Positions 6,126-50,047 of a DNA stretch of 64,000 nucleotides are shown here, in pieces. Source of the stretch: Sulfurovum sp. (GTDB lineage Bacteria; Campylobacterota; Campylobacteria; Campylobacterales; Sulfurovaceae). A program made the position numbers and the translations under genes. How positions within the stretch are numbered: position 1 is the first letter of the stretch; every line of letters begins with the position of its first letter. Location of the stretch: the NCBI GenBank assembly GCA_027082955.1, contig JALWTA010000010.1:9712-73711 (forward strand). Direction: 5' to 3'. Under the pieces are notes generated by a model. That model did no database searches. It was not told the DNA's origin and was given only the letters and a program-made list of their open reading frames with translations.

Positions 6126-6131
6126 TATAAT
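6126..6131 (+). promoter_or_regulatory. Candidate -10 box TATAAT for MBOAT copy 1, preceded by an A9 tract
   Basis: A consensus TATAAT lies 26 nt upstream of the TTG start at 6158. An A9 run (6113-6121) lies immediately upstream. This is the only intergenic gap feeding the plus-strand block from 6158 to 14189. Confidence 0.4.
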
Positions 6132-6152
6132 TGCCTAAAAATAAACGGGATA

Positions 6153-7612: not shown

Positions 7613-7623
7613 GGAGACGTAGC

Positions 7624-9172: not shown

Positions 9173-11189
9173 ACATATTCTTATTACCGGTGCGAACGGA
9201 CAGCTTGGAGGTGAATTCCGTTCTCTGGTGGACAACCGGGAACGTTTTGATACCTCCGATCACTATTTTTTCACCGATAGAGAAACACTGGATATTACCG
9301 ACAAAGAGGCTGTTGAAAACTATGTGATGCAGCACAATATTGATACGATCATCAACTGTGCTGCCTATACGGCGGTCGATAAAGCTGAGGAGGAGGAAGC
9401 ACTTGCCTATCTTATTAATCGTGATGCGGTCAGAAACCTGGCAGAAATTGCCAAAAAATATGATATACATCTGATCCATATCTCTACAGATTATGTGTTT
9501 GACGGTACAAGCCATACCCCTTTGTGTGAAACAGACAGTGTTAACCCCCAAGGTGTCTATGCCAAATCAAAATATGAAGGTGAAGCGGCTATCAGAGAAA
9601 TTGCACCTAAAGGTGCAATGATCATACGTACCTCATGGATCTACAGCAGCATGGGGCACAACTTTGTCAAAACAATGCTGCGCGTGGGCAGTGAACGGGA
9701 TGAAATACGTGTTGTGTGTGACCAGATAGGGACGCCAACCTATGCAAGAGATCTTGCGAGGGCAATTCTTACGATCATTGCATCAGAGAGCCAGAGCGAT
9801 GAAGTCAAAACGTATCACTACAGCAATGAAGGGAACTGCTCCTGGTACGATTTCGCACAGGCGATCTTTGAGATCGCACAGGTTGACTGCCGTGTTACTC
9901 CCATCAGTACCCATGAGTATCCGACACCGGCAAAACGTCCTTCTTACAGTGTTCTCAACAAAGATAAGATCAAATATGAGTATGGTCTTGACATCCCCTA
10001 CTGGAGAGATTCACTCAGGTCCTGTATCTCGCTGCTGGACTTCAAAGAGGTCAAGCGTTACAAGATCGGTATTATTGGTTCAGGTTTTATTGCCAACGGA
10101 TTGGCAAAACTGCTGCTGCAGCATCCTGACTATGAATTGAAAGCGGTATTGACCCGAAGTGATTTAAGCAAGCGCAGTGATTTTGTCAAACCTGAGGTAT
10201 TGACCAATGACCTTGAGGTATTGCTTGATACGTGTGATTTGATCGTAGAATGCAGCGGAGATGCCATCTATGCAACCGAGACGATCGACAGAATCATCAA
10301 AGAGGACATACCGGTTGTGACGATGAACTCAGAGTTTCATGTGACTACAGGTTCTTACTTTGTGGACAAAGGGTTGGTTACGGAAGCCGAGGGGGATCAG
10401 CCCGGTGTCGAGGCTATTTTGTATGAAGAGGCGCTGGCAATGGGCTTTAGACCATTGGCATTTGTCAATATCAAAGGTTTTCTGAATGAAAATCCGACAA
10501 GAGAAGAGATGGAGTACTGGGGTGGACGCTCAAATCTCTCCCTGGAAATGGTAACTTCGTTTACGGACGGAACAAAGGTACAGATAGAACAGGCACTTGT
10601 TGCCAATGGTCTTGGCGGATGTATTGCACAGGAGGGGCTGCTTAAGCTGAAAGATGACGACATGCTTCATGGCGGTACTATTTTGGCGGACAAGGCTAAG
10701 GAACTGGGCTGTCCGGTCAGTGACTATGTGCTCTCTCCAAAACTGCCTGCCGGTGTTTTTTTGGTGGTAGAACATGATGAAGAGCAGGCAGGATCACTGC
10801 GTTACTACAAACTTGGGGAAGGTCCCTACTATGTTTTGGAGCGTACTTATCATCTTTGCCATCTTGAGATCATTAAAACGATCAAACGGGTACTGGGCGG
10901 TGGTGGTGTCCTGCTAAATAACGGCAGTGATCCGAAATTGAGTGTCGCAGCCATTGCAAAACATGACATTATGCCCGGTGATACGCTGAAAAAGGGCATC
11001 GGCAGTTTCGATGTACGCGGCGAAGCGGTATATATTGAGAAGCATCCTGACCATGTGCCCATAGGACTGCTTGCTGATGCGACGTTTGTGCGTGAGGTTA
11101 AAGAAGGGCAGATCGTAACCTTTGCAGATGTGGAACTTCCGGAGAGTCTGGCGCTGGATATCTGGAAGCGTATGCACATCAAAGGCTGA
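9165..11189 (+). CDS. Fusion protein: dTDP-4-dehydrorhamnose reductase (RmlD) N-terminal domain plus a homoserine-dehydrogenase-like NAD-binding domain ending in a SAF domain (COG4091-like)
   Basis: ATG 9165 overlaps the rfbC stop (ATGCGTAA). Residues 1 to about 295 are RmlD-like: ILITGANGQLG, STDYVFDG, YAKSKYEGE, PTPAKRPSYSVL. A second Rossmann motif KIGIIGSGFIANG then follows, with EGDQPG and a C-terminal beta-clip-like SAF segment (IMPGDTL...VKEGQIVTFADVE). Confidence 0.7.
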   Translation: MRKHILITGANGQLGGEFRSLVDNRERFDTSDHYFFTDRETLDITDKEAVENYVMQHNIDTIINCAAYTAVDKAEEEEALAYLINRDAVRNLAEIAKKYDIHLIHISTDYVFDGTSHTPLCETDSVNPQGVYAKSKYEGEAAIREIAPKGAMIIRTSWIYSSMGHNFVKTMLRVGSERDEIRVVCDQIGTPTYARDLARAILTIIASESQSDEVKTYHYSNEGNCSWYDFAQAIFEIAQVDCRVTPISTHEYPTPAKRPSYSVLNKDKIKYEYGLDIPYWRDSLRSCISLLDFKEVKRYKIGIIGSGFIANGLAKLLLQHPDYELKAVLTRSDLSKRSDFVKPEVLTNDLEVLLDTCDLIVECSGDAIYATETIDRIIKEDIPVVTMNSEFHVTTGSYFVDKGLVTEAEGDQPGVEAILYEEALAMGFRPLAFVNIKGFLNENPTREEMEYWGGRSNLSLEMVTSFTDGTKVQIEQALVANGLGGCIAQEGLLKLKDDDMLHGGTILADKAKELGCPVSDYVLSPKLPAGVFLVVEHDEEQAGSLRYYKLGEGPYYVLERTYHLCHLEIIKTIKRVLGGGGVLLNNGSDPKLSVAAIAKHDIMPGDTLKKGIGSFDVRGEAVYIEKHPDHVPIGLLADATFVREVKEGQIVTFADVELPESLALDIWKRMHIKG

Positions 11190-11190
11190 T

Positions 11191-12380
11191 CGCCCTTGCT
11201 GTTCAACTCCTACGCATTCATTTTTTTCTTTCTGCCGGTAGTTTTTGCTGTTTATTTTTATCTTAACCAGAGACGGCTGACAGAGGCAGGCAAAGCCTTT
11301 TTGGTCGTAGCGTCTCTTTTTTTCTACGCCTGGTGGAATGTAAGCTACCTGCCGCTGATACTGGTGTCGATGGTGGTCAACTATGCAATAGGAAGAGAAC
11401 TGGCACGGCACCAAAAGAACAGAAGAAGCTACTCTCCCAAAAAACTGCTTGCCGCAGGTGTCGTGTTCAACCTTGGACTGCTGGGATACTACAAATATAT
11501 GGATTTTTTCCTCGAGAACGTCAACCGCATATTCCATAGCCATATCCCTCTGCTGCACCTGGCACTGCCGCTTGCGATCAGCTTCTATACCTTCCAGCAG
11601 ATCTCCTACCTCGTAGACAGTTACAGAGAAGAGACCAAAGAGTATGACTTTCTTAACTATGCACTCTTTGTGACCTTCTTCCCCCAACTGATCGCAGGGC
11701 CTATTGTTCACCATGCAGAGATGATGCCGCAGTTTGCCAAGACAAGGAACAAAGTAAAGCACTATTACAATATCGCTCTGGGGCTCTTTGTCTTTTCTAT
11801 GGGGCTGTTCAAAAAAGTGATCATTGCAGATACATTTGCACAGTGGGCGACCCAGGGGTTCGATGTGTCAAAAGAGCTTAATATGCTCGAAGGATGGGTC
11901 ACTTCACTCTCCTATACCTTCCAGCTCTACTTTGACTTCAGCGGCTATACCGATATGGCGATCGGTGCCGCACTGCTGTTCAATATCAAACTGCCGATCA
12001 ACTTCTTCTCTCCCTACAAGGCAGTCAGTATTCAGGATTTCTGGAGGAGATGGCATATTACCCTTTCACGCTTTTTGAAAGATTACCTCTATATTCCGCT
12101 TGGCGGGAACAGAAAAGGCAAAATGCGTACCTATATAAACCTCTTTGTCACCTTTTTGCTCGGGGGTATCTGGCATGGGGCAGGATGGACTTTTGTCTTT
12201 TGGGGCACACTGCACGGCGCGGCACTGGTGATACACCGTTTCTGGCAGCAGATGGGTATGAAGATGCCTAAGATCCTTGGATGGTTCATTACTTTTAACT
12301 TTATCAATATCGCATGGGTCTTTTTCCGGGCAAACAGCTTTCATGATGCCTTGAAGGTCTTGAAGGGAATGTTCTTGGGT
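11191..12380 (+). repeat. Direct repeat copy 2 (1,190 bp), identical to 6153-7342
   Basis: Same evidence as copy 1. The offset is exactly 5,038 bp. The repeat begins 1 nt after the TGA of the rfbD-fusion gene. Confidence 0.9.
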
Positions 12381-12680
12381 GATACAGATATGAAAACATA
12401 TCTTCAAGGACTCTATGACCAAGCAAATCCAATTGCACAATGGTTCAATCTTAATAGTGGTGCCTACCATGCACCGTTCAATCTGTTCGCTTTGGCAATG
12501 GTAATGGTGGGATTGTTGATTGTCCTGTTCTTCCCAAACTCCAATGAGCTTGCCGGTATTTTTCATGCGAAGAAGCGTGTTTCTTGGCGATATTATCTGT
12601 TATCGGTACTGCTGTTTGGTACCGCATTGGCAATGATGAGTGTTTCGCATGGATCTGAATTTCTCTATTTTAATTTTTAG
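11196..12680 (+). CDS. MBOAT-family membrane O-acyltransferase, copy 2 (identical to copy 1 for 395 codons, divergent last ~100 codons)
   Basis: 494 aa with a TTG start. It equals copy 1 through VLKGMFLG, then diverges and ends SEFLYFNF. Confidence 0.85.
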   Translation: MLFNSYAFIFFFLPVVFAVYFYLNQRRLTEAGKAFLVVASLFFYAWWNVSYLPLILVSMVVNYAIGRELARHQKNRRSYSPKKLLAAGVVFNLGLLGYYKYMDFFLENVNRIFHSHIPLLHLALPLAISFYTFQQISYLVDSYREETKEYDFLNYALFVTFFPQLIAGPIVHHAEMMPQFAKTRNKVKHYYNIALGLFVFSMGLFKKVIIADTFAQWATQGFDVSKELNMLEGWVTSLSYTFQLYFDFSGYTDMAIGAALLFNIKLPINFFSPYKAVSIQDFWRRWHITLSRFLKDYLYIPLGGNRKGKMRTYINLFVTFLLGGIWHGAGWTFVFWGTLHGAALVIHRFWQQMGMKMPKILGWFITFNFINIAWVFFRANSFHDALKVLKGMFLGDTDMKTYLQGLYDQANPIAQWFNLNSGAYHAPFNLFALAMVMVGLLIVLFFPNSNELAGIFHAKKRVSWRYYLLSVLLFGTALAMMSVSHGSEFLYFNF

Positions 12681-12689
12681 GAGCATGGC

Positions 12690-14189
12690 GTGAGCAAGAA
12701 ACGGTATATCTTTATGATGCTGGCAGGAAGTCTGCTCTTTTTGCTGGTGCTGCCTGTGTTCAATTATCTCCATGACCAGTGGCGCGTACTCCATCGGGAT
12801 TTTGCCTATGCCTATGATGATATTGCGATCAACAAATCCTACTTGAAAACAGTCTATCTTTTGGCACATCCAAACCGGTATGATACACTGTTGTTTGGTT
12901 CTTCCAGAAATGCAGCTTTTGTAGAGACCGATATTGCACCGCATGCCTACAATGCCTATGCTGATTTTGGTGTAATAGGACAACACCTGCATACGCTTGA
13001 GATTTTGCTGGGACACGGCTTGGCTTTGAAAGAAGTGTGGATAGGGATCAATGATTTTGATATATGGAAAGATCCTAAAGATTTTGAAAAGGACTATTCC
13101 AAGCGGGTGTATCATGAAGATATAGAGGGGATATTTGACTTTTACAGACTTTATCTGTTTAAGCCTGTTGACAACAATGACCTTGCCATTATGAAAGGCA
13201 AATTCAAATTGGCTCCAAGTAACCGAATTTACCGTAAAGCGCTTGACAAACACAGACAAACATTGATAGACAAAGAGAAAAGTTTGCAAGAAAAAGGTAT
13301 GCGCTGGCGTAAAAAACTTACTTCGACTGCCGCGACACTGCTTGGCTACAAGGATGATCCCAAACAGTACAGAATCTCAAAAAGTATCGATGAGATCAGA
13401 AGGATCAAGCGTCTTTGTCAAAAACATCATGTTAAAACGGTTTTTTTCTTCTACCCGGCATTCTACAAAACCTATATGATGTACAACCAGTCCAGAATAG
13501 AAACTTTCAAACGTAAACTGGCAGAGGTGACAGATTTCTACGATTTTTATCGTCTTGATGCGACTGCAATGGATGAAACAAAATGGACAGATACCAGCCA
13601 CTTTGTCTATAGCGTCGCCTTTCAAATGGTTCAGGATATTAAACATGGGAAGCATCTTGTAACACACAGTAACTGTGAAAGCGTATTGAGACAAGAGCGT
13701 CAAATGGCTACAGAACAGTTACTGCGTAAACAACTTCCAATACCGTATGTAATGCGTTTTAACGGTACGATCCTGCCAAGTGGAACCGATGTACTATTTG
13801 ATATGAAAAAGGGTAGTTATGTCCCAAATGTACAGACCAGAGTGCAGACTGACACTGAGGGCATCAAGGTGAAAAGTCTTGGTACTGATCCAAATTTGTT
13901 GTTTGGTCCGGTGCTTTCAAAAACGCAGAATGTGGTGTTACATTGTGAGATGACAAGTCAATACAAGACACTTTTTCAGCTTTTTTACAAGGTTGGCAAG
14001 GATGCCCGTTTCAATGAACATGATGCGGTTAAATTCGGGTTACACAAAGGGCTGAACCGTTTTAACCTGCTGATCCCTTCTGCTTGGCTAAGGTATGGTT
14101 TCCGCATGGATCCGGGGCAGAAACCCGGTGATTATTTGATCAAGAAAATGGAGATATTTGGAGAGAAAAAATGTGCTTCAGGAGAGTGA
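12690..14189 (+). CDS. Membrane-anchored periplasmic SGNH/DltD/AlgJ-like protein with an extra C-terminal beta-rich module, putative partner of MBOAT copy 2
   Basis: 499 aa. GTG start after AGGAG, with the same junction layout as partner 1. It has an N-terminal TM helix, LLFGSSRN and a TDTSHF (DxxH) block. Residues from about 385 to 492 form a module also seen in the 695-aa and 615-aa proteins. Confidence 0.5.
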   Translation: MSKKRYIFMMLAGSLLFLLVLPVFNYLHDQWRVLHRDFAYAYDDIAINKSYLKTVYLLAHPNRYDTLLFGSSRNAAFVETDIAPHAYNAYADFGVIGQHLHTLEILLGHGLALKEVWIGINDFDIWKDPKDFEKDYSKRVYHEDIEGIFDFYRLYLFKPVDNNDLAIMKGKFKLAPSNRIYRKALDKHRQTLIDKEKSLQEKGMRWRKKLTSTAATLLGYKDDPKQYRISKSIDEIRRIKRLCQKHHVKTVFFFYPAFYKTYMMYNQSRIETFKRKLAEVTDFYDFYRLDATAMDETKWTDTSHFVYSVAFQMVQDIKHGKHLVTHSNCESVLRQERQMATEQLLRKQLPIPYVMRFNGTILPSGTDVLFDMKKGSYVPNVQTRVQTDTEGIKVKSLGTDPNLLFGPVLSKTQNVVLHCEMTSQYKTLFQLFYKVGKDARFNEHDAVKFGLHKGLNRFNLLIPSAWLRYGFRMDPGQKPGDYLIKKMEIFGEKKCASGE

Positions 14190-14225: not shown

Positions 14226-15410
14226 TCATATATGGAATGACGCGTTGTTTTTGGCTTTTCTGAACCTGCCGCGTTTCCCAAAAGTGATTCCCGGACGTTC
14301 GATGAAGAGATAGGTCAGGGAAGCAGTCAGCACCACGAGCACAACGATAATAGGCATCATATAGGTGTGCTGTGTAGCGCTGATGAGTTTCAGGTCAACT
14401 ACCTCAAATACTGTAAAGAGAATGTAGATGATTGCACCGTGCAGGAGGTAGATGCTGTAGCTTATCTCTCCAAGCAGCAAAGAAGCTTTTTTATGCATCA
14501 GTCCGAAGAGGGAATTGCCCCAGGCAATGGCGATAAAAAAGAGTGCTACCAGCGAAATGGGCAGGGGATCGTATATTTTTTTGTAAAATACCGCATATAG
14601 CAGGGCGATGGTGATTGCTGCGGAGACAAATGCATTGTCAATATAGCGAATGGGAATGCGCTGAATATGCCCGGAGAGCACTGCGGCAACCCCTCCGATG
14701 ACAAAAAAGACAAGATGGATCGTCTCAAATGCGTAAAAGGCATGATTTTCATAAAAATAAACGGCACCGCCAATTGCCAGCAGCAGAGCGATCCATCGGT
14801 TAAGGGTAATGACAAGTGCGATTAGCGGCAAGGAGAGGTAAAAAAGCCATTCATATTTGAGCGTCCAGTCCACTCCGGCAATGATCAGAGGAGTATGGTC
14901 GTGCGTATGAAGATTACCGCCATGAAAAAAAAGCCAATGGGTATATTGTTCCACCAGAGAAGAGATGTCGATACCGTGACGGTATTGCGGTTGCATGAAA
15001 ACCACGACACTGATGACAAAAATGGCAAACAGATAGAGTGGATAGATCCTGAAAATACGGGATTTGTAGAGTTTGATCCAGTCTGTTTTGTGTCTGTCTT
15101 TCATGATCTTGGCAGTAAAGAGATAGCCTGTGATCATAAAGAAGATCATCACACCTATCAGTCCAATATTCTGGAAATAGACCTCATGCGGGCGCCACCA
15201 GTGGGTCGTGTTCTTCCAGTACCATGTCAGCATGAAGTGGTGGGCGAAGACCGAGAGGGCAAGGTAGCCTCGCAGTCCGTCTATTGCACCGTAACGGCCA
15301 GTACGTTCATGCAGAAAAGCAAAACGCGAATGTCTGACAACAAGGCTGCCAAGCAGGTAGCTGACTACCAGCATCGTCATAAAAAATCCGATCTTTACAA
15401 TATCATCCAA
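14226..15410 (-). CDS. Acyltransferase family 3 (OafA/WecH-like) membrane O-acyltransferase
   Basis: 394 aa, about 10 TM helices. AT3 hallmark IDGLRGYLALSVFAHH near the N-terminus. Confidence 0.8.
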   Translation of the reverse strand: MDDIVKIGFFMTMLVVSYLLGSLVVRHSRFAFLHERTGRYGAIDGLRGYLALSVFAHHFMLTWYWKNTTHWWRPHEVYFQNIGLIGVMIFFMITGYLFTAKIMKDRHKTDWIKLYKSRIFRIYPLYLFAIFVISVVVFMQPQYRHGIDISSLVEQYTHWLFFHGGNLHTHDHTPLIIAGVDWTLKYEWLFYLSLPLIALVITLNRWIALLLAIGGAVYFYENHAFYAFETIHLVFFVIGGVAAVLSGHIQRIPIRYIDNAFVSAAITIALLYAVFYKKIYDPLPISLVALFFIAIAWGNSLFGLMHKKASLLLGEISYSIYLLHGAIIYILFTVFEVVDLKLISATQHTYMMPIIVVLVVLTASLTYLFIERPGITFGKRGRFRKAKNNASFHI

Positions 15411-15494: not shown

Positions 15495-17582
15495 ATGTTG
15501 CTACGGGAACTTTGGAAACGTAAAAAAGAATTTTTTATTGTATTTGGCTACTTTTTTTTGCTTGTCTCTGGCATGATCATGACACATCATACCTTTTTGG
15601 GTATTCAGGACGAGGCTCAGCTTCAGGCCACACTTAAAGCAGCAGATGTCTACAACTATATGACCAGCTATCCTCTCGCTCTGTTTGGCGGATGGCTTTA
15701 TACCCATTTCCCCCATGGACAGTGGTACAGTGTCATCATGACCTTCTATACGCTCTTTATGACACTGGTTATGAGTGGCTATATCATATTGCTTGATATC
15801 GAAAACAGATGGGGAAGATGGTTTATTAAAGGGCTTTTGCTTGCGCTTTTTACTCTTCTGACGGTCTATACACTGCTGGAGGTCGATGTGACCTCTCCGA
15901 CACTCTTGCTTATCGCTTTGGCAGTGCCGTTGGTCAAACGTCATCAGGTATGGTTTTGGTTTATTTTTTGGGTAGCGAGCTTTTTACGCGAACAGATCAT
16001 CTTTTCGGTCATACCGCTGGTTGCACTGGCATATGTTATCGGCTTTGACAGAACCTATTTTACGAACAAGCGCAAGATTGTACTTTCATTGCTGTTCGTT
16101 GCGGGAATTCTGTTCAACCATTTTTCCTATAAACTTGACAAAGGATACGCACAATGGATGGAGTTTACTGAAGCACGTGCGTTTTTTACCGATTTTAACG
16201 GCGGATACAGTCCTGTTTTGACACCCGATGAATATCATCTTGCCAAAACATGGTGGCTGCTTGATCGGGAACTCTACCCTGTAGCCAAGATCCCGAAAGC
16301 CGCGGGAAGCAAGGTCGATCTTGTCAAAGAGCGTTTTTTGCAAAATCATCCGAAATGGCAAGTCAGAGCAGTACTGATCAGACATCCTGAGATCAAAATA
16401 CTCTTTGCGCTCTCTTTGCTCATTGCGTTGCTCTACAGGAGCTGGTTGCGTTTTGGGGCATACGCACTGTTCGGTATTGGACTTATTGTGCTGTTGATTG
16501 TCAAAGATGTCGAACGGGTGACATTTCCGGTGCTTATTATGTGGTGGGTACTGTTGGCAACGGATCTGTGGCGCATCAGGGGCAATGTGTGGCTGCGGCG
16601 ATCTGCGGTGGGTGCAGTGGTGCTTATTGTGGCATGGTTGTGCTACTTTACCTACCGGACACTTCCCTTGGACAGGATCACCCATTTTGCCCAGAGAGAA
16701 GCGCTGCATAAAGAGTTTAAGGATATTATCGCTCGTAACCACATGCAACTGGAGATCACATCCGGATACCCGGCATCATGGGGCTTGCTGGTGGAAGCGT
16801 TGATGGAAAATCACCTGTTCGACGAAGCCAACTGGGCAGATTTCTACCATGATCTGCTGCTCTCAGGGTGGTTTACACAAAGCCCTATCTGCTACCGGCA
16901 GCATCAGATCAGTGCAGATGGGGTCAAACGGAAATATGCCACCTACTATGACTGGCTGATGGATCCAAATACCGGTATCATCGGTTCAAAAGGGGAACGC
17001 AGGCATGTTCATCCGTTTTTGGCAACGAAACTTATGGCACTCTATGATAAAAAACATCCAAAAAAAGGATTCCGTCATATTCCTGAGGTGGTCGATGAGA
17101 GTAAACATTTCATTATTCACCGTATCGTACAGACAGATGCCTTTATTACACGTGTTTCCCCTGTAAAAGATATAAAGCAGTATACGCCGTTGTGGCGTAT
17201 ATCCTCTGCATCTTCACTCAGACCCCATCACATGGCATGGAAAGAGGGAATACTGCATGCTACAGACAAAGATCCGTGGTTTTTCGTGACACTGCCGCAT
17301 AGCAAAAGCCGTTTTGTGCTGCTGGATGTTGACATAGAGATTCCAAGGGCGCATGACGAGATGCAACTCTTCTATAAAACATCGGACAAACGTCCCTACA
17401 ACGAGATCGATTCTGTAAAAATAAGACTGAAAAAGGGCTGGAACCATTTCCAACTGAAGATCCCAAGAGAATACCTTCAAAGAACAGTCAGAATAGATCC
17501 TTCCAATTATGCGGGGGAATACCGTGTGCGTTCTATAGCACTCTATCCGTATGCGGAAGAGAATGCTTCTATGCAAAAGTGA
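15495..17582 (+). CDS. Polytopic membrane protein with a large C-terminal extracytoplasmic domain, function unknown (candidate GtrC/GT-C-like transferase)
   Basis: 695 aa. About 10 TM helices span residues 1-390, followed by a soluble region ending in the shared beta-rich module (residues about 578-686). I recognised no family motif. The functional guess rests on context only. Confidence 0.3.
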   Translation: MLLRELWKRKKEFFIVFGYFFLLVSGMIMTHHTFLGIQDEAQLQATLKAADVYNYMTSYPLALFGGWLYTHFPHGQWYSVIMTFYTLFMTLVMSGYIILLDIENRWGRWFIKGLLLALFTLLTVYTLLEVDVTSPTLLLIALAVPLVKRHQVWFWFIFWVASFLREQIIFSVIPLVALAYVIGFDRTYFTNKRKIVLSLLFVAGILFNHFSYKLDKGYAQWMEFTEARAFFTDFNGGYSPVLTPDEYHLAKTWWLLDRELYPVAKIPKAAGSKVDLVKERFLQNHPKWQVRAVLIRHPEIKILFALSLLIALLYRSWLRFGAYALFGIGLIVLLIVKDVERVTFPVLIMWWVLLATDLWRIRGNVWLRRSAVGAVVLIVAWLCYFTYRTLPLDRITHFAQREALHKEFKDIIARNHMQLEITSGYPASWGLLVEALMENHLFDEANWADFYHDLLLSGWFTQSPICYRQHQISADGVKRKYATYYDWLMDPNTGIIGSKGERRHVHPFLATKLMALYDKKHPKKGFRHIPEVVDESKHFIIHRIVQTDAFITRVSPVKDIKQYTPLWRISSASSLRPHHMAWKEGILHATDKDPWFFVTLPHSKSRFVLLDVDIEIPRAHDEMQLFYKTSDKRPYNEIDSVKIRLKKGWNHFQLKIPREYLQRTVRIDPSNYAGEYRVRSIALYPYAEENASMQK

Positions 17583-17952
17583 AGTAGCGGTTAAGCAGAT
17601 AGAAAAGTGTACTGTAAATGACCATCCCGGCAAAAAAAGCGATATCCGTTGCTATAAGATGGTGTTCAACGATAAAGTGCAGACCGGCATAGCTTGCACC
17701 ATAGGAGATGCCAAATGAGAGTAAAAAGAGCGTAAACTCTTTTAGCTTGTTTTTGTTGCTGAAAAAGACGAACTGCCGATTGAGAAAAAAGCTGATGATG
17801 ATGCCAATGACGTAGCTTAGGAAATAGGAGAGCGAGTAGCTTAGTCCTACCAGATGAAAAAAAATGAGGATGACGGCATATCCTATAATGGTATTGACCA
17901 CACCGACCGCTACAAAACGCAGAAAGGTTTTGTCGATAAGAGGGAGGTTCAT
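17569..17952 (-). CDS. GtrA-family small membrane protein (polyprenyl-phosphate-sugar translocation)
   Basis: 127 aa, 4 TM helices. GtrA-like N-terminus FLRFVAVGVVNTIIGY. ATGA overlap with the upstream ydjC-like gene. Confidence 0.8.
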   Translation of the reverse strand: MNLPLIDKTFLRFVAVGVVNTIIGYAVILIFFHLVGLSYSLSYFLSYVIGIIISFFLNRQFVFFSNKNKLKEFTLFLLSFGISYGASYAGLHFIVEHHLIATDIAFFAGMVIYSTLFYLLNRYFTFA

Positions 17953-18758
17953 GATCGTCCTATAGAGAGTACAGCATCCAGCTCCACACGTCTGTCTGAA
18001 GAAATACGGTAGTCTTTTTCCCCATCATCATAGAAGTGTACTTCTGCATCGAGTTCAGGATAGCTTGGATGCACCATGGCTTCAAACGGTATAGACATTG
18101 TTTGAAGCTTCTGGAGAATTTCTTTGCCGACCACTCCGGTATACAGGATAGAGTAGAACGCACGCTCACCGTAGCGGTCTTCGTAACGGCTGTCTATCAT
18201 ACTGAAAGTGCGCAGCAGCAGATATTTTATGATGCCGCCATTGAGGATAAAATTGAAACGTTTGGAGAGGCGGAAGGATTGCAGCGGATTCTCTTTGATA
18301 AGTCTGATCCGATCGATACCGTAACGTTCTGCGAGTTTCACTGCTATGGGGTAAAGATGAGGAATGAGATGGACATGGCGGTGACTGTCAATGTGGGTGA
18401 GGGGGCGTGTAAACCCTGAAAAGGAGAGTACACGCTGGATCTGTGCTTCCCACTCTTTCTCAACCGCTGCAAGAAAATCGGGGTCCTTTTGGGTCAGTAG
18501 TGTTTTGTAGCCGAGATTAAAACAGCCATTCTCATCACAATAGAGAGCATTAGGAAGAAGTGCTTTTCCATAAGTCAGATTCAAGTGCATACCCACACCG
18601 AGTTCAGGACGTTTCAATGCCCCTTGCATCGCCTCATCAAAATAGTCACAGTTTGCCATGATACTGGCATGCGTGATACCGCCTTTATCGTGTCCGTCAA
18701 ATATGGCACGGTTGGCACCAGGAGTCATCCCAAGGTCATCTGCATTGACAATGAGCAT
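17949..18758 (-). CDS. YdjC/ChbG-superfamily carbohydrate deacetylase (NaxD/LgmC-like)
   Basis: 269 aa. It has the YdjC motifs LIVNADDLGMTPGANRAI and THIDSHRHVH. Confidence 0.8.
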   Translation of the reverse strand: MLIVNADDLGMTPGANRAIFDGHDKGGITHASIMANCDYFDEAMQGALKRPELGVGMHLNLTYGKALLPNALYCDENGCFNLGYKTLLTQKDPDFLAAVEKEWEAQIQRVLSFSGFTRPLTHIDSHRHVHLIPHLYPIAVKLAERYGIDRIRLIKENPLQSFRLSKRFNFILNGGIIKYLLLRTFSMIDSRYEDRYGERAFYSILYTGVVGKEILQKLQTMSIPFEAMVHPSYPELDAEVHFYDDGEKDYRISSDRRVELDAVLSIGRS

Positions 18759-19715
18759 CTATGCGACCTCTTCTTCAATGAAGTAGTGTGGTCTGCCTTT
18801 TGTCTCTGCGTAAATCTTCCCGATATATTCTCCAATGACGCCCAGCGCCAGCAGTTGAATACCGCCGATAAAGTAAAGCGGCAGTACGGTAGATGCCCAC
18901 CCCGGTACGGCTTCATTTGTAAAATAGACCGTATAAAGCACATCGAGTGAAAGAACAATACTGCCAAGAAAGATAATGAATCCCGTGATGGTGATCAGTT
19001 TCAGGGGGAAGAGGCTGAAGGAGGTGATCCCTGACCATGCAAAACTTAGCATCTTCTTGAGTGTATATTTGGATTCGCCTGCAAACCGTTCGGTGGTTTT
19101 GAAGTAGACTTTGGTCGTTTTGAGCCCAATCAGTTTGATCATGCCTCGAATGAAAAGGTTCCGTTCCTTGAACTGAAGGAAAAAGCTCAGTGCTTTATAG
19201 GACATCAACCGGTAATCTGCATGGTTGAATTCTATATCCACACCCATGAAGTGCATCAATGTATAGTAACCTTCAGCGGTCATTTTTTTAAAAAACGAAT
19301 CTGATTCTCTGTCTTCTCTGATACCGAGTACGACCTCATAGCCTTCACGGTATTTTTCCACCATGACCTCTACGGCATCCGGGTCTTGCTGAAGATCTGC
19401 ATCGAGAGATACCATGCAGTCTGTATGTGTTCTGTGGGCATATGCCATACCGGCAAGAAGCGCATGCTGATGCCCCTCGTTTTTGGAAAGCTTGATACCT
19501 TTGATAAACGGATAGGTGTCGGCATAGGAGGAGATCATCTCCCATGTAGCATCCTGACTGCCGTCATCTACGAAGACAATATAGCTTTTGCCAAGGATCT
19601 TGTGGGTATTGACCAGTCGGGTGTAGAGCTCTCCCAGACGTTTAACGGTTTCGGGGAGTACCTCCTCTTCATTGTAACAGGGAATAACAATGGCTAATGT
19701 AGGCAAGGTCGACAT
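18759..19715 (-). CDS. GT2 polyprenyl-phosphate glycosyltransferase (GtrB/ArnC-like)
   Basis: 318 aa. Motifs LAIVIPCYNEEE, FVDDGSQD, SLDADLQ, ADYRLMS and GESKY, two C-terminal TM helices, and GEYIGKIYxExKGRPxY. Confidence 0.85.
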   Translation of the reverse strand: MSTLPTLAIVIPCYNEEEVLPETVKRLGELYTRLVNTHKILGKSYIVFVDDGSQDATWEMISSYADTYPFIKGIKLSKNEGHQHALLAGMAYAHRTHTDCMVSLDADLQQDPDAVEVMVEKYREGYEVVLGIREDRESDSFFKKMTAEGYYTLMHFMGVDIEFNHADYRLMSYKALSFFLQFKERNLFIRGMIKLIGLKTTKVYFKTTERFAGESKYTLKKMLSFAWSGITSFSLFPLKLITITGFIIFLGSIVLSLDVLYTVYFTNEAVPGWASTVLPLYFIGGIQLLALGVIGEYIGKIYAETKGRPHYFIEEEVA

Positions 19716-19744: not shown

Positions 19745-20689
19745 TTATACTGCATTAGATGTTAAAGTGTCCAGATGTGCGTGTGTGTACCACCATGACG
19801 GATGCATACTCAGTTTTTCTATCAGAAATTGCGGCAGTTTTTTATGGTGCACTCCCAATGTATAGCCAAGATATTTGAGGGTATTCCGTATGACAAATTC
19901 CGGGATTTTCCCATAGGCATGCTGTGCGGCAATATAGCGAAGTTCGGAGAGGATATATCGTTTTCCCTCTCCGCCGGCTTTGCCAAATGTATCAATCAGC
20001 CAAGCTTCTCTGCTATGAAAGACACCGGTATCAAAATAGCGTTTAAAGTCTTCAATGACTGAATAGCTGTGGGCATGATATACAGCAGCTTCTGCCTGAT
20101 AGGCGACGCGGTAGCCATCTCTGAGGATTTTTGCTACAGTATGCATGTCTTCTCCAACGATCAAGCCCTTTTTGAACCAGCCGACCTCTGAGAGGACAGA
20201 TGTACGGTATGCCCCAAAACTGTCCGAGAAAAAAGCTGTTTTCAATCCGTAGCGCTCTCTGTCCTGGAGAATACGTACATAAGATTGCTCAGGGTAGTTA
20301 AAATAGCGAAGGTGGCGTCCAAACAGTGACGTTTTTTCATATGGTATTTGCCTCCCGTATGCTGCGGCAATGGAAGGGTCGTCAAAAGCACCAACAAGTC
20401 TCTCTAGTGTTTTGTTGTTACACGGCATTGCGTCCTGCGTCATGAAAACAAGGATGTCTCCGTTTGCTGCCTGTGCGGCGATGGTACGTGTATGTCCATG
20501 ATCAAATGTCTCCTTGGGGATGGAGAGAAAGATATCGGCAGTTTCTCTTGCAATCTGTGGAGTGCGATCCGATGAAGAAGAATCTATGACGATCAGTTCG
20601 CTTTCAATACTTTGTGCCCGCAGCCGTGACAGCAGTGCCGGCAGCAGCTTTTCAGCCTGATAGGTAGGGATGATGACACTCAGTCTCAT
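19745..20689 (-). CDS. GT2-family glycosyltransferase (rhamnosyltransferase-like)
   Basis: 314 aa. LSVIIPTYQAEKLL and VIDSSSSD are present, and it is soluble. Acceptor and donor are unknown. Confidence 0.7.
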   Translation of the reverse strand: MRLSVIIPTYQAEKLLPALLSRLRAQSIESELIVIDSSSSDRTPQIARETADIFLSIPKETFDHGHTRTIAAQAANGDILVFMTQDAMPCNNKTLERLVGAFDDPSIAAAYGRQIPYEKTSLFGRHLRYFNYPEQSYVRILQDRERYGLKTAFFSDSFGAYRTSVLSEVGWFKKGLIVGEDMHTVAKILRDGYRVAYQAEAAVYHAHSYSVIEDFKRYFDTGVFHSREAWLIDTFGKAGGEGKRYILSELRYIAAQHAYGKIPEFVIRNTLKYLGYTLGVHHKKLPQFLIEKLSMHPSWWYTHAHLDTLTSNAV

Positions 20690-20710: not shown

Positions 20711-21916
20711 TTAGAGCGGCAGTCGGCTGAGATATGCTTCAAAGCCTCTAAAGGAACCTGATATAGAAGCTTTTCCTCCCTGCTCTTCCAATTCATACTG
20801 TATGGCAATGAGTGTGACCTCCCAGTCTTCCGGATTGAGTCCGAAGTTCTGCCCAGCAACTTCAGGCGGAGGGTTGTCCTGAAGAGCAGCGAGGACTGCA
20901 CGAATATTTTGGTAAGCGATATTAACACGGTAAAAGTCATTCCATTGCCCATCATCGGCAGTTGACTTGTTTGGTGTGTTCGTTACTTCCTGGATCGAAC
21001 GTGATTTTGGCGATTTGGTACACCACCACGAATCATCTTTGGCAACTGTTGCGACATGGACGATACCGGTAGTAGGGTCAAATCGGATACCGGCACGCTC
21101 TTCCTGCCATGCCGAACCGTACGCATAGATGCCGATTACAAAATTCAAATGTTTATTGATCTTTGGGTTGTACAGGAAAACATTAAATGAAACCCCACCA
21201 CCGATATTGGATTCGTAATTGTGGTAGATAGGCAGGTCGAAACTGCCTTGAAGCATCAGGTTGCCCGTACCGTCACTTTTCCATGGCATAATGTGGGTAC
21301 TAGGACGTATCTGGTAGGTGAATGTGCTGCCGATACCTGAGTAGGTCAATGCCTGTTCCGGGGCATCATAAAGGTTGAGGGTGGTGCCTGCTGCAAGTGC
21401 ACCATTAACACATTTGGATTCGCCTACCACGCCACTTGGGTCTATTTGCGAAAAATCACTGCCTATGATAGTATTGCGGTTACCGGTTCTGGCATCGATA
21501 CCGGTCAGTACGGAGTGGTTGGCAAAATGTGTACCATCACCGTTATAGAGATAGCGTGAAACAGGATTGGTATAGCGGAAATCCCAAAATGGTTTGAGTA
21601 CTTCTGAAAAAGGATAGGAATAGAGATTGGCTGTGGCAGAGAAATACCGACCTGCTGCCTCTGTTTGTGTCATAAAGTGGACAAACCCGACATCAGCATT
21701 GCTACTGCACTGGGAAGTGATAATAGGTGTTTTGTCGGCTTCATTTTGCTGGAAGGTTACAGTAAAAGGACGCGAACCTCTTGTATCGGCAGTACCTTTG
21801 TACTCTTCATATTTGTGTTTTACACGTTCAAGTTCTTTTTTGGCTTTATCGATAAGCTGGCATCCGGAGAAGATGAGAAGAAAAGGGAAAAGCAATAGAA
21901 TGATTCTGTGTTTCAT
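20711..21916 (-). CDS. Lipoprotein of unknown function
   Basis: 401 aa. The signal peptide has the lipobox LIFSGC. The mature part looks beta-rich and carries no motif I recognise. It is embedded between two glycan genes in the same operon-like run. Confidence 0.5.
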   Translation of the reverse strand: MKHRIILLLFPFLLIFSGCQLIDKAKKELERVKHKYEEYKGTADTRGSRPFTVTFQQNEADKTPIITSQCSSNADVGFVHFMTQTEAAGRYFSATANLYSYPFSEVLKPFWDFRYTNPVSRYLYNGDGTHFANHSVLTGIDARTGNRNTIIGSDFSQIDPSGVVGESKCVNGALAAGTTLNLYDAPEQALTYSGIGSTFTYQIRPSTHIMPWKSDGTGNLMLQGSFDLPIYHNYESNIGGGVSFNVFLYNPKINKHLNFVIGIYAYGSAWQEERAGIRFDPTTGIVHVATVAKDDSWWCTKSPKSRSIQEVTNTPNKSTADDGQWNDFYRVNIAYQNIRAVLAALQDNPPPEVAGQNFGLNPEDWEVTLIAIQYELEEQGGKASISGSFRGFEAYLSRLPL

Positions 21917-21951: not shown

Positions 21952-23031
21952 TTATAGCGAATTTTCTACTTGTTTTCGCCATTTGAATCCACGTTCCTCT
22001 ATCTGATAGTAGCTTAGGGACGATATACCTAAAAGTGAAACAACGAAGATCGTGATGATCATAGGCATAGAAGGGTGGTGCGGAAGCAGATAGTGGTCGA
22101 TCAGAAAGAGAATGGGCATATGCCAAAGATAGACAGAGTAGGAGATTTTGCCTATCCATTCTATAAATCCTACACCTTTTGGATCACTGTTGAACAGAAG
22201 TATGAAAAGAGCACTGACGATCAGCAGCATAGCGATGTTTCTAAACAGAAAGCTCTCTTGCATGAAAGAGTATGTCGAAAGGTAGACAAAAAAAACACCC
22301 AGTGCTATAGCAAGTATGTATCGGATAGAAAAACCGATACGGGGTGTGTAGACGACATAGCGGTAGATCAGAATGCCACTGATGAAATAGATGATCTGAC
22401 CAGGAAGCTGAAATGAAAGATAGTATGCAATAAGCATATAGTTGCTTGCAGATCTGTCAAGGTGGAGAAGGGTATCATACCATCCCCGGTCGATACCGAA
22501 GAGATAGAGCATCCCTGCAAAAAAAAGTATCATAAGATAACGGCTTTTGTGTACATAAAGGAAAAGCAGCGGTGCAATGAAATACCAAAGCATTTCTACA
22601 TTGAGAGTCCAGTATGCACCATTGATACCATAACCGGCATCTTTGTAGATAAAGTACGAAGTAAATGTCAAGTGACTTAACAGTGATTTTAAAAATCCGA
22701 ATGAAATCGGATGTGAAATACCAAAGAAAGCACCGTAGAGCATAATGACAAAAAGAAGATTGGCATAGTAGGCAGGAAGGATCCGAAAGAGCCTGTGAAG
22801 CGCATAGCGAACAAGTCCGCGTTTAGGATTCTCCTGGGAGAGATAAAAACTGACAGAACGGTAGATGAGGTAGCCGCTGATGATAAAAAAGAGTGCCACT
22901 CCGAACTGACCGAAAAAGTGAATATAGCCAAATACCGGCTCTCCCATCAGGTGCAGTAGTACATAAAAATGATAGATAACAACACTGATGACTGCAATTC
23001 CCCGAAGAAGGTCTATTCCTTTCAATCTCAT
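21952..23031 (-). CDS. Acyltransferase family 3 membrane O-acyltransferase
   Basis: 359 aa. It has IDLLRGIAVISVVIYHF and about 10 TM helices. ATGA overlap with the upstream gene. Confidence 0.8.
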   Translation of the reverse strand: MRLKGIDLLRGIAVISVVIYHFYVLLHLMGEPVFGYIHFFGQFGVALFFIISGYLIYRSVSFYLSQENPKRGLVRYALHRLFRILPAYYANLLFVIMLYGAFFGISHPISFGFLKSLLSHLTFTSYFIYKDAGYGINGAYWTLNVEMLWYFIAPLLFLYVHKSRYLMILFFAGMLYLFGIDRGWYDTLLHLDRSASNYMLIAYYLSFQLPGQIIYFISGILIYRYVVYTPRIGFSIRYILAIALGVFFVYLSTYSFMQESFLFRNIAMLLIVSALFILLFNSDPKGVGFIEWIGKISYSVYLWHMPILFLIDHYLLPHHPSMPMIITIFVVSLLGISSLSYYQIEERGFKWRKQVENSL

Positions 23032-26000
23032 ACGACAGTATTGTCCTGTTGTGCTTTTGTGACCGTTCTCAGCACAGCATCTGCCGAAACTTCATCGATA
23101 ATATATCCTTTGTCATACATCTTTACCCGTTCGGCAGGGGCACCAAGGTCAAAGACCATAAGCGGAAGTTCCATCTGCATGATCTCTTCTGCTGTGTAGG
23201 AGAAGGTCTCCGGCCAGATTGACGGAATAAAGAAAAGATCGACGTGGTAATGCTGTATGATCTCAGGAAGTATATTTCGTTGGTATTTTCCTGTTAAACT
23301 GTAATGCGGACTTTCTATCGGTTCTGTGATTTCACCAATGACTACTACGTTAATATTGAGATCTTCCGCATCGATACGTGAGACCAAATCTTTAACCATT
23401 GCAGCCCCTTTGGCGTAGTTGATCGCTCCAAGAACACCAACTGTAAAAGGCGCATCTTTCTCTTTTGGTGGAAGTGAAAGAGGTGTCATATCCGTGACTT
23501 TGTGCGGCAATACTTCAATATTGGCACTTTCAAGACCAGGGTATGCTTTTAGCAAGATCTCTTTTGAGCTCTGGCTAAAGCAGAGAATAGAGCTGCTAAG
23601 ATGCAGTAGACGGTCCCAGAGCAGACGCCATGTATCAATATCGGCAGGCTCCGGATGATAAGTTTTCCATTCAAGCCGATTGCGTCCCATGCAGTCACGA
23701 CATGTCTGGATATCAGGGATATCACAATATGTGCCGGTATCATTGAGGAGTGTATAGCTTGGGCAGACTGCATAGAAATCATGCAAAGGTATGATGAGGT
23801 CAATATTACGACGATTGATAAAGTGTTCAAGGTATTCCAGTATCTCTTTACTGTTTGTATAGGAGACAAGACTGTTTAGAAATACCGTATCGACACGTAG
23901 TTGCTCCAAAAGTATCTCTACGCCATTAAGTGTATCGATGGAGAAGAGGGATTCGTATGATTTGTATCGATGATGGATCGAGAACTTGTTTGTATAGAAA
24001 TCAAATCTGATCATAAGGGTATTTTCCCCTTCTGCATGTTTGTTCTCTACCAGAGCATCTGCATAATGATTCGCACCTCCTCCAAGAGCATGATCGAACA
24101 TGATCCACATCGGTTTTTTCAGGGAAGATGCAGTAAGTACCAACAGTTTCCGAAGTGTATGATGCGGATCTTGCTGAATATAACGTTGTACTTGTTTGTC
24201 ATAATCAGGATGGCGGGTAAGGAGTTTGCTGTAATTTTCTTCCAGAAGCTTCTGTTTAAGCACCGAAGGGAAAGATCCGCCATGTTTGTGATATACAAAG
24301 AGGTTAGGTACGAGTATGTTGGTATAGCCGTGTTCTATCGCGCGTTGGCACCAGTCATTCTCCTCTCCGTAACCTTTTCCGAATGTTTCGATATCGAAAA
24401 ATCCTATTTCCTGAACAACATCATAATTGACGCCCATACAGAAACCGACCCCTGTCGGCAGATGTGCATAATAGGGTATGGGATTGATTTTTTGGAACAT
24501 ACTGTCAAGCTGTGTAACGGACAATGCTTCAAAAATGGGGTTATCTTCAAGGAATTTCGGGAAACTTGCGATAGTACCGGAGTTTGTAAACGGAGTGGTC
24601 GAAGCGACCTTTGGCATGTGAAAAACAGGATACATCAGACGTTCAAGCCAGAAAGGTGGCAGTTCTGTATCGGTATTGAGAATAACGAAATGACCCTCTG
24701 CTTTTTCTACGGCACGATTGACACTGCGTACGAAACCAAGGTTCTCTTCATTATCAAGTAGTGTAGCATGGTCGAATTCTGAAAGTCTTCTTTGTAAGTA
24801 AGGCAGTACACGTTCATCAGGGCTGGCATCATTGACTACAATCAATCTATACGGATGGGATGTGTTTTCTTTGAGGGTGTTGAAGAGAATCTCAAGAAAA
24901 TCATATCCATTATAGACAGGTATAATAATATTGATCCTTGTATGTTCAGGCAAAGCATACTGCTTGGGGTCGAAAGAGATGAAATCACGCTTTGGATCAA
25001 TAGAGAGTGCATTGCCCGACTGACGAAGATTGGTTTGCATCTTTTCTTTTAGCTTTTCCCACATATAACGGAACTCTCCGCGTTTAAGATAGTAGAAAAG
25101 TTTTCTTGCCGCAGCCGGGTTGGCTTTGAAGAGTGAAGCTGCTGTTGAGAATTTCTCTGCCGCAGAAGGTTTCGGCAGGGCAGGGGTCTCTTTGCCGAGT
25201 TTGGTACGTACATGTTTTATAACTTCGGATGGAAGATTTTTAAGACGGTTTTTCAGGCGCATTGATTCTGCAAGTGTTTCCATCTCTTTGGCATACTGCT
25301 TCAGTGCCTGCATCTCATCGATCAGTTCATTGACCTTTTCAAAGATATCCTGCCCTGCATATTGCTGGGAAAGTACCAGCGATGCAGTCTCTTCAGTCAG
25401 TGATACAGGTAGTGCAGCATAGTCAGCAGGGCTGGGTGCAATATACATGCCCTGTTGTTGCACAAGGATACCCAAAAAACGTTCGATCGCATGTGCAACG
25501 GTATGATCTTTTTGTCCACGCTCCTCTTCAAAATCAAGTTCACCGTTTTGAAAGAGTGTCAGCAATGGTGCGAGAAGTTTACTGCGTGTCCAGAACATTG
25601 TGCCACCGGCAAATGTATAGTCTGCAGAAAAAGGTATGTTCGCTGCTTCACACAGCTGTTTGATCTTTGTATTGTTCCCGTAGGCATAACGTTGTGAATC
25701 AAGAATGGTATGTCTGCCCGTGATCTGCCCGATATTAGGATCTTCTGCAAAAAGATTCATTGTTTTCGTTACAGTCTCCGGCGAACCAATCAGATCAAAA
25801 TAGAGCATTTTTCGCCAAACACTGCCAAGCGGGCTTTCACCCGTTTTTTTAGTATGTAGTTTGCATAGATAAGTATAGGTATCGATACCGATATGGTTCA
25901 TAACAAGCAGGAAAGGCAATACATCTCTTCCGCGATTTTCGACTGTGTAGAGGGTTGCTTGCGGGCATGCCTGCAGGATGCGCATGGCATCCGATTCATC

Positions 26001-45614: not shown

Positions 45615-45643
45615 AGAATATCCTTTACATTTTTCTGTACATT

Positions 45644-45652
45644 ATTATAGCA
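45644..45652 (-). promoter_or_regulatory. Extended -10 promoter element TGcTATAAT for TA pair 1
   Basis: Plus-strand attatagca equals minus-strand TGCTATAAT, 29 nt upstream of the antitoxin ATG (SD AAAGGA). It sits in the 44-nt gap after the PglC-like gene. Confidence 0.5.
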
Positions 45653-45658
45653 TACTTT

Positions 45659-50045: not shown

Positions 50046-50047
50046 GA

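Follow-up and report, generated by a model that had tools for sequence, protein, structure and literature searches.

Introduction

Three-component “Gtr” systems (GtrA, GtrB and GtrC) for the glucosylation of O-antigen are known from Shigella, Salmonella and Escherichia coli phages, and their equivalent in Klebsiella, which adds galactose to the O2 antigen, acts on an O-antigen whose exporter is a transporter of the ATP-binding cassette (ABC) type; such three-component systems modify ABC-transporter-exported O-antigens in the periplasm (PMC11127046). In Francisella, Bordetella and Acinetobacter, a synthase resembling ArnC or GtrB is combined with a deacetylase of the YdjC family that acts on N-acetylhexosamine linked to undecaprenyl phosphate (Und-P-HexNAc) (PMC4993483, PMC12330716). 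The present work concerns a locus of a deep-sea Sulfurovum sp. in which parts of both kinds of system are found together. The window, i.e. the whole stretch of DNA analysed, comprises 64,000 nucleotides of contig JALWTA010000010.1 (assembly GCA_027082955.1), and the genes of interest encode a GtrB-like synthase, a YdjC-family deacetylase, a GtrA-family protein and a membrane protein of 695 amino acids, here called X695. It is proposed, with a probability of about one half, that they make up a four-part system for glycosylation in the periplasm, in which the sugar is deacetylated on its carrier and X695 serves as an orphan transferase, and that this system is encoded at the distal end of an O-polysaccharide operon. 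The source sequences are from uncultured organisms, and the functions given for all four genes are predictions. The genes are as follows.

15495-17582, plus strand: X695, 695-amino acid membrane protein without a Pfam family
17569-17952, minus strand: gtrA, Pfam GtrA_DPMS_TM
17949-18758, minus strand: ydjC, Pfam YdjC
18759-19715, minus strand: gtrB, glycosyltransferase of family 2 (GT2), Pfam Glycos_transf_2

The likeness to the Gtr systems lies in the GtrB-type synthase, with its GT2 domain and two C-terminal transmembrane (TM) segments, in the GtrA-family protein encoded alongside it, in the adjacent multi-TM partner of variable sequence, in the location in or near O-antigen genes, and in the proposed decoration of the polymer in the periplasm after its polymerization. 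The locus differs from these systems in that a YdjC deacetylase is encoded between gtrB and gtrA, in that the third component is convergent rather than co-directional, and in that X695 has large periplasmic domains, one of them alpha/beta and the other resembling a carbohydrate-binding module (CBM).

The NaxD/Lgm pathways (FlmF2-NaxD-FlmK in Francisella, LgmA-LgmC-LgmB(-LgmD) in Bordetella and NaxD in Acinetobacter) share with this locus the combination of a synthase with a YdjC protein and the free-amine surface sugar that is its predicted product here, but their transferase is ArnT-like (PMT_2, family GT83) and their acceptors are lipid A phosphates, whereas here the partner has no Pfam match and the acceptor is likely to be a polysaccharide. 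The module is not placed within the NaxD/Lgm set as defined, because PMT_2, the mark of an ArnT-like transferase, matches none of 26 members of the X695 family and none of 85 members of its wider superfamily at a permissive threshold, and because a lipid A acceptor is unlikely. In the Arn pathway of E. coli and Salmonella (ArnC-ArnD-ArnE/F-ArnT), a GT2 enzyme likewise loads a blocked amino sugar onto undecaprenyl phosphate (Und-P), the deformylase ArnD unmasks the amine, small membrane proteins flip the sugar, and a periplasm-facing multi-TM enzyme transfers it. The differences are that ArnD belongs to another deacylase family than YdjC, that the flippase ArnE/F resembles small multidrug resistance proteins, that the sugar is 4-amino-4-deoxy-L-arabinose, and that the acceptor is lipid A.

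In Paenibacillus alvei, the transferase WsfD and the GtrB-like WsfH together attach a glucose branch to a surface-layer glycan that Wzm/Wzt exports (PMC2943079). This system resembles the present one in its use of a GtrB-like synthase and a dedicated membrane transferase, but it has no deacetylase and no GtrA, its host is Gram-positive, and the link is weak, since the NCBIfam model WsfD matches only one of the 85 superfamily members (E = 8e-5).

Two further systems decorate cell-wall polysaccharides: mycobacterial PpgS/Rv3632/Rv3779 adds galactosamine (GalN) to arabinogalactan, and streptococcal GacI/GacJ/GacL adds N-acetylglucosamine (GlcNAc) to a rhamnan. Both consist of a polyprenyl-phosphate-HexNAc synthase, a GtrA-like helper and a transferase of glycosyltransferase fold class C (GT-C) that belongs to a recognised family. 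Enzymes of the RgpF type make the rhamnan on which GacIJL acts, and the locus described here likewise contains RgpF. No YdjC gene of the mycobacterial cluster is known to encode the deacetylase of the GalN pathway. The system proposed here would combine the three-component logic of the Gtr systems with the on-carrier de-acylation of the Arn, NaxD and Lgm pathways.

The coupled genes gtrB, ydjC and gtrA

The initial annotation of this DNA had reported four open reading frames and a tight coupling of the three minus-strand genes, and both its coordinates and its family calls hold when the junctions are read again from the sequence. The stop codon of gtrB (18759) abuts the start of ydjC (18758), the stop of ydjC and the start of gtrA overlap in an ATGA (17949-17952), and translation of these three minus-strand genes is coupled. 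The stop codon of X695 (TGA, 17580-17582) lies beyond that of gtrA (17569-17571), so that the two genes converge with an overlap of 14 nucleotides. They stand last in a long operon on the minus strand, within the O-polysaccharide locus. Rfam gave no match anywhere in the window.

GtrB matches Pfam Glycos_transf_2 (E = 9.6e-28) and is 37% identical to E. coli YfdH, the prophage homologue of GtrB, over 317 amino acids (E = 6e-68), and 32% identical to E. coli ArnC (E = 7e-48). Its matches to the NCBIfam models PgfS (1.5e-66) and ArnC (1.7e-45) are both under the cutoff. With TM segments at residues 241-259 and 277-295, close to its C-terminus, it has the architecture of GtrB and ArnC, and it is predicted to be a GtrB-like polyprenyl-phosphate glycosyltransferase that synthesizes Und-P-HexNAc.

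YdjC matches PF04794 over its full length (E = 8.7e-48, 163.9 bits against a gathering cutoff of 29.7). An inactive homologue that had lost its metal-binding aspartates and histidines would have counted against the module, but the catalytic motifs NADD (5-8), GMH (56-58) and HIDSHRHVH (122-130) are all kept and align with those of the chitooligosaccharide deacetylase 7vi8. The best NCBIfam match is ChbG (E = 1.9e-35), although the protein scores under the equivalog cutoffs both of this model (122.6 against 227) and of HpnK (97.2 against 232.6). It has no signal peptide and no TM or hydrophobic segment, and is predicted to be cytoplasmic, where by analogy it would convert Und-P-HexNAc to Und-P-linked hexosamine (Und-P-HexN).

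GtrA is a small protein with four TM segments that matches PF04138 (GtrA_DPMS_TM, E = 1.3e-20) and is 27% identical to E. coli YfdG over 64 amino acids (E = 4e-8). It is a putative flippase for the Und-P-linked sugar or a putative helper of the synthase.

Conservation of the arrangement across lineages

The proteins of the window were mapped onto 27 fetched loci of Sulfurovaceae (designated below by L and a number), which represent ten distinct lineages with enough downstream sequence for comparison; loci of more distant members lie mostly on contigs that are short or carry little information. In eight of the ten lineages X695 and gtrA converge, often with overlapping 3' ends, and the order gtrB-ydjC-gtrA is kept in seven of these eight. 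Because the arrangement recurs at a protein identity of 44-52% in so many distinct lineages, it cannot be attributed to chance. Among the variants, gtrB is displaced by the insertion of an MBOAT gene in L010, and ydjC is absent from L001 and L002, where a bare X695-gtrA-gtrB island lies between hemE and a DNA methylase gene. In L001 this island (10001-13381) is outside any polysaccharide locus and holds no other candidate transferase, and its GtrB is 66% identical to that of the window. An association with a synthase of this kind is also seen in L030, a locus of the distant superfamily, in which the X695 relative and a GtrB-like GT2 of full length (27% identity over 322 amino acids, E = 3e-26) belong to one operon.

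The island without ydjC offers a natural comparison between acetylated and free-amine decoration, and may be a mobile cassette.

X695, its superfamily and its structure

X695 was originally described as having no recognisable motif, and it has no match in Pfam. A search for homologues found 36 clusters, none of them named or labelled by Pfam, which come solely from Sulfurovum, Nitratifractor and metagenome-assembled genomes labelled “Campylobacteraceae/Epsilonproteobacteria”, which places the window in a Gram-negative, Sulfurovaceae-type member of the Campylobacterota. A profile search of 1.84 billion representatives extends this family to a superfamily of 183 proteins with E <= 1e-3, or some 183 clusters when grouped at 50% identity, most of which are 520-600 amino acids long; the close family and the distant members are joined by profile-profile comparison with a probability of 100% (E = 5e-39), while a homologue search begun from the alignment of the distant superfamily found only five proteins, none of them named. 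Short family members of about 540 amino acids lack the C-terminal beta-sandwich described below. Scans of 26 family members against Pfam and NCBIfam at E up to 10 gave no consistent match, the only one being a weak match to AZOBR_p60025 (“glycopolymer formation”) in two of the 26. In the distant superfamily there are weak matches to DUF6056 (8 of 85), DUF6057 (3 of 85) and “LA_3751/LA_3752 putative glycosyltransferase” (12 of 85), and a literature search for DUF6056, DUF6057, LA_3751 and AZOBR_p60025 returned nothing relevant.

Confident AlphaFold2 models of the full-length protein (predicted local distance difference test score, pLDDT, 87; predicted template-modelling score, pTM, 0.82) and of residues 1-425 (pLDDT 84, pTM 0.85) suggest a division into three domains:

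15495-16739, plus strand: membrane domain, residues 1-415, pLDDT 84-87 in AlphaFold2, the candidate catalytic domain
16740-17243, plus strand: periplasmic alpha/beta domain, about residues 416-583, delimited by DSSP of the model, with a GGW..SP motif found superfamily-wide
17244-17546, plus strand: C-terminal beta-sandwich, residues 584-684, CBM-like in Foldseek and ending in the motif R-I-D-P

The model, the hydropathy and the charge counts together indicate a cytoplasmic N-terminus, 11 TM helices and a periplasmic location for the last 306 or so residues; the large periplasmic C-terminal domain of the initial annotation is thus retained, while its estimate of about 10 TM helices becomes 11. 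The charged residues of the membrane domain that are invariant all fall within periplasmic loops; D39/E40, R165, R228, D233, E246, D257, K265, D275, D338 and R341 are all periplasmic. D39, which is invariant, and E40, which is nearly so, are located in the loop after TM1, where distant members have DD at the same position. This acidic pair, a W-Y pair, an arginine (R165), an aspartate (D233) and a second arginine (R341) are nearly invariant across the superfamily at an identity of about 15%. In the alpha/beta domain E420, E444, W447, G458, W459, R479, D518, H528 and D534 are invariant, and the GGW...SP motif is retained in the superfamily A3 consensus.

In being polytopic, with a cytoplasmic N-terminus and conserved acidic residues in its first periplasmic loop, X695 agrees with GT-C enzymes. 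Transferases that use lipid-linked sugars typically have such a pair of acidic residues on the periplasmic side after TM1, while Wzy and WaaL rely on arginine and histidine. The first external loop (EL1) of GT-C enzymes is built as TM1, two short helices and TM2, and the same order is seen in X695, where residues 38-48 and 59-71 form short helices in the first periplasmic loop, between TM1 and TM2.

With full-length X695 as the query, Foldseek ranks EmbC, an arabinosyltransferase of class GT-C, first in the PDB (E = 2e-3, probability 0.96, query-normalized TM-score, TMq, 0.24), and the other matches are CBM structures of families 4, 6, 16, 22 and 29 that align with the beta-sandwich (probability 1.0, target-normalized TM-score, TMt, about 0.5). 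With the membrane domain alone, the matches are ALG3 (TM-score 0.35/0.37, probability 0.75, E = 0.36), EmbA/B (0.27-0.34) and AftA (0.21), and GT-C enzymes are the only matches with a TM-score above 0.2. A comparison with predicted viral structures (BFVD), aimed at the GtrC proteins of phages, gave no significant match to the membrane domain. The possibility that X695 is a transporter, which would have told against the idea of a transferase, was rejected, since structures of the major facilitator superfamily, proton-dependent oligopeptide transporters, solute carriers and ABC transporters align at a TM-score of only 0.10-0.18.

Direct profile alignment by hhalign gave a probability of 9% for X695 against the PMT_2-like p615 family (see below), 0.1% against the single sequence of E. 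coli ArnT, and no similarity to the single sequence of E. coli YfdI, which would be a further difference from the Gtr systems. The results for ArnT and YfdI are discounted, because the test is of low sensitivity and the PMT_2-like p615 profile, used as a positive control, also failed to find ArnT.

The comparison with known structures that the initial annotation had called for thus places GT-C enzymes above transporters but leaves the membrane domain below significance, and membership of GT-C is suggestive. The suggestion that X695 represents a new transferase family is upheld as far as it concerns a conserved and linked partner with acidic and basic invariants on the periplasmic side. A role as a transferase is inferred from the conserved synteny, the topology and the weak fold similarity together. 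It is a more tentative proposal, with the odds leaning somewhat against it, that X695 is the founding member of an unrecognised family, not described in Pfam, in a CAZy-type classification or in the literature, of periplasm-facing transferases that use Und-P sugars, and that it here transfers a deacetylated hexosamine onto O-polysaccharide.

An AT3 acyltransferase gene (14226-15410, minus strand) is divergent from X695 and lies 84 nucleotides upstream of it, a position that is kept in L011/L017, L016 and L018 at 58-64% identity. The enzyme may O-acetylate the same decoration or polymer.

The polysaccharide locus and the likely acceptor

Judged by its gene content, the surrounding locus is a complete ABC-transporter-dependent (Wzm/Wzt) O-polysaccharide locus of the rhamnan type. 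Its principal features are these:

9132-11189, plus strand: RmlD-type reductase fused to a DRL-type oxidoreductase domain, 685 amino acids, also in L011
11196-12680, plus strand: MBOAT, with its partner gene 10 nucleotides downstream
12690-14189, plus strand: MBOAT partner of 499 amino acids, with a C-terminal beta-sandwich like that of X695
23028-26201, minus strand: triple-domain RgpF-GT2-GT1 glycosyltransferase, 1057 amino acids
37061-38392, minus strand: Wzt with a Wzt_C domain
38392-39183, minus strand: Wzm
39294-40664, plus strand: WaaL-like ligase

The RmlD-type and RgpF-containing proteins are unusual fusions. The locus also holds a UDP-glucose dehydrogenase, several glycosyltransferases, a Wzz-like protein, PglF/E/D-like genes, an initiating transferase of the Bac_transf type, two pairs of MBOAT and partner genes, and AT3 acyltransferases. 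The location is not peculiar to the window: at least five other lineages also have the module among or beside genes for O-polysaccharide (rml, RgpF, AT3, MBOAT, Wzm/Wzt).

The beta-sandwich at the C-terminus of X695 is 32% identical over 102 amino acids (E = 1e-13) to residues 390-490 of the 499-amino acid protein, which is probably the periplasmic partner of a system for O-acylation of the same polymer, and every X695 homologue shows this match as well. In p615, a protein encoded further along the locus and discussed below, the periplasmic domain at the N-terminus weakly matches the same beta-sandwich (hhalign probability 43%, E = 2.5e-4). The shared unit is thus a domain of about 100 amino acids ending in R-x-D-P, located at 17244-17546 (X695), 13857-14159 (the 499-amino acid protein) and approximately 32020-32190 (p615). 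It may be a locus-specific glycan-recognition domain, and the simplest reading is that all three proteins bind the same polymer. This shared CBM-like module, together with the locus context, makes O-polysaccharide a likelier acceptor than lipid A. The analogy with NaxD/Lgm that had originally been drawn is consequently kept for the intact YdjC beside an ArnC/GtrB-like synthase, but not for the lipid A acceptor that it implied.

The two MBOAT (AlgI/DltB-like) genes of the locus lie in 6131-8589 and 11196-14189, both on the plus strand, with partners of 321 and 499 amino acids encoded within about 10 nucleotides, which suggests that two distinct systems O-acylate the polysaccharide in the periplasm. 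It is a pair of MBOAT and 321-amino acid partner that interrupts the gtr module in L010, where the partner has a faint match to DltD. Elsewhere in the window, a block of lower guanine-cytosine content (approximately 45600-57300, minus strand; 34-40% as compared to about 45% elsewhere) holds a MurJ/Wzx-like flippase (48510-50045), a weakly matching Wzy-like polymerase (50048-51361), GT1 glycosyltransferases, an AT3 acyltransferase and a UDP-GlcNAc 2-epimerase. This block is apparently a second glycan cluster, of the Wzx/Wzy type, beside the ABC-type one, and was possibly acquired horizontally.

Proposed mechanism

If the four proteins form a single system, its first step, as expected from the family of GtrB, would be the transfer of N-acetylhexosamine from a UDP donor to Und-P at the cytoplasmic face of the membrane. 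Cytoplasmic YdjC would then strip the acetyl group from the sugar on its carrier to give Und-P-HexN, a step that is proposed because of the position of the gene, the intact catalytic motifs and the precedents of NaxD, LgmC and ArnD. GtrA would help to bring the lipid-linked sugar to the periplasmic face, where X695 would transfer the hexosamine to the acceptor, using a periplasmic site made up of D39/E40 after TM1 together with R165, D233 and R341, while its beta-sandwich would hold the acceptor. The likeliest acceptor is the rhamnan-type polysaccharide exported by Wzm/Wzt, before WaaL ligates it to lipid A-core. The polymer would thereby gain an amino sugar as a side branch, its amine free and positively charged, and lineages without ydjC would add an acetylated sugar instead.

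Alternative explanations

Several observations weigh against this four-part system. No gtr-like gene is found within 6-7 kb of the X695 homologues in L007/L012/L013 and in L023, where X695 is instead beside a sugar nucleotidyltransferase, an epimerase, a soluble GT2 (“GT2b”) and an apiosidase-like hydrolase; the idea that X695 is the partner of the gtr module accordingly agrees with the linkage in eight of ten lineages and disagrees with these two. Counterparts of the companion genes are present in the window:

19745-20689, minus strand: GT2b, soluble GT2 upstream of gtrB in the same operon
20711-21916, minus strand: lipoprotein-like protein of 401 amino acids, also upstream of gtrB in the same operon
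32523-34211, minus strand: apiosidase-like/DUF5060 (GH140-like) protein, a companion of X695

GT2b and the apiosidase-like gene accompany X695 in seven lineages, even where gtr genes are lacking, and the 401-amino acid protein often does so too (companions are listed at L003, L006, L007, L011, L012 and L018), which hints at a larger conserved unit. Since the pair of GT2b and apiosidase-like genes is found with X695 at a frequency similar to that of the gtr genes, X695 could serve another step of polysaccharide assembly. The structural argument has weak points of its own: searches of the PDB sequences with X695 and its family profile return noise only (such as LptG and EmrE), no Pfam GT-C model matches any of 111 members of the family and superfamily, the EmbC match may be driven by the C-terminal beta-sandwich, and the membrane domain reaches no significance in fold comparison (best E = 0.22, TM-score <= 0.37, nothing at E = 0.001). 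Finally, the substrate of YdjC is assigned solely by the position of its gene.

The most probable alternative is that Und-P-HexN is made as proposed but is used by a conventional GT-C enzyme, while X695 has a polymerase-like, ligase-like, chain-handling or non-sugar group transfer role in polysaccharide assembly, together with GT2b and the apiosidase-like hydrolase. The initial annotation had held that an ArnT-like GT-C is missing here. This is not so, as the long operon that ends in gtrA encodes a candidate on the same strand, although that candidate, the sole conventional GT-C of the locus, is paired with a GtrB-like synthase of its own:

29525-30481, minus strand: GT2 with two C-terminal TM helices (GtrB-like), 5 nucleotides downstream of p615
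30487-32334, minus strand: p615, 615-amino acid PMT_2/DUF2142-like GT-C candidate

p615 itself has no Pfam match, but it is taken to be an ArnT-like GT-C because its relatives carry PMT_2 (5 of 39) or DUF2142 (4 of 39; best E = 1.6e-13). It consists of an N-terminal TM segment, a periplasmic beta domain and a multi-TM domain with the motif YPPDELAHLSY after a TM helix, and its family, unannotated throughout, forms at least 107 clusters, which come from Sulfurovum and Nitratifractor. The transferase could thus be p615, or an ArnT-like enzyme encoded elsewhere. Yet none of the other X695/gtr loci has p615 within 6-10 kb, and the pair of p615 and its GT2 is adjacent also in L032, beside Wzm/Wzt and without gtrA or ydjC, so that the locus appears to contain two independent pairs of donor synthase and transferase. 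For these reasons p615 is judged an unlikely partner of gtrB-ydjC-gtrA, and X695 is favoured as the dedicated one. The L001 island, which offers no transferase other than X695, and the acidic pair after TM1, a feature not typical of the Arg/His-reliant Wzy and WaaL, argue in the same sense, and the explanation by a conventional GT-C enzyme is considered unlikely.

A somewhat less probable alternative is that X695 is an analogue of FlmK, LgmB or ArnT which places glucosamine or GalN on the phosphates of lipid A or on the inner core, lowering the negative charge of the surface and the binding of cationic peptides. The pairing of a GtrB-like synthase with YdjC is otherwise documented only for lipid A hexosamine (PMC4993483, PMC12330716), a transferase that is not ArnT-like is plausible given that the one of Acinetobacter baumannii is described as “an unknown enzyme” (PMC12330716), and the L001 island is not part of a polysaccharide locus; but the embedding of the module among O-polysaccharide genes in the window and at least five lineages, and the CBM-like beta-sandwich that X695 has in common with a polysaccharide O-acylation partner, argue against it, as does, by an insensitive test, the lack of any sequence relationship found between X695 and ArnT.

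It is improbable, lastly, that YdjC deacetylates a soluble or polymeric substrate (a nucleotide sugar intermediate or a cytoplasmic oligosaccharide) while the Gtr proteins transfer an ordinary hexose or HexNAc. In favour of this reading, the characterised YdjC enzymes include the soluble chitobiose deacetylase ChbG, the best NCBIfam match, and the module would function without ydjC in the L001 lineage. Against it, the protein scores well under the ChbG and HpnK equivalog cutoffs, in seven lineages its gene is placed precisely between gtrB and gtrA and is translationally coupled to them, and on-carrier editing has its precedents in ArnD, NaxD and LgmC.

Significance

Free-amine sugars at the cell surface alter charge, recognition by phages and antibodies, and resistance to cationic peptides. 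The route by which such sugars are deacetylated on a lipid carrier has so far been documented only for lipid A, with ArnT-like transferases, and a search of the literature found no paper that pairs YdjC with GtrA or GtrB. The four-part system, if correct, would carry this chemistry over to side chains of O-polysaccharide. On the more tentative reading of X695 as the founder of a transferase family, it would be the first case of on-carrier deacetylation of the NaxD type in the decoration of a polysaccharide rather than of lipid A, and whether the side chain bears a free-amine or an acetylated sugar would depend on whether ydjC is present. The lineages with and without this gene provide a natural on/off comparison. 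The locus would also illustrate that one O-antigen locus can carry two independent pairs of donor synthase and transferase, together with a glycan-binding module that is common to three periplasmic modifying enzymes. A conserved and wholly unannotated superfamily of membrane proteins would acquire a function, and X695-like proteins, as a new class of candidates, could be the kind of enzyme that is missing where the hexosamine transferase is not known, as in A. baumannii.

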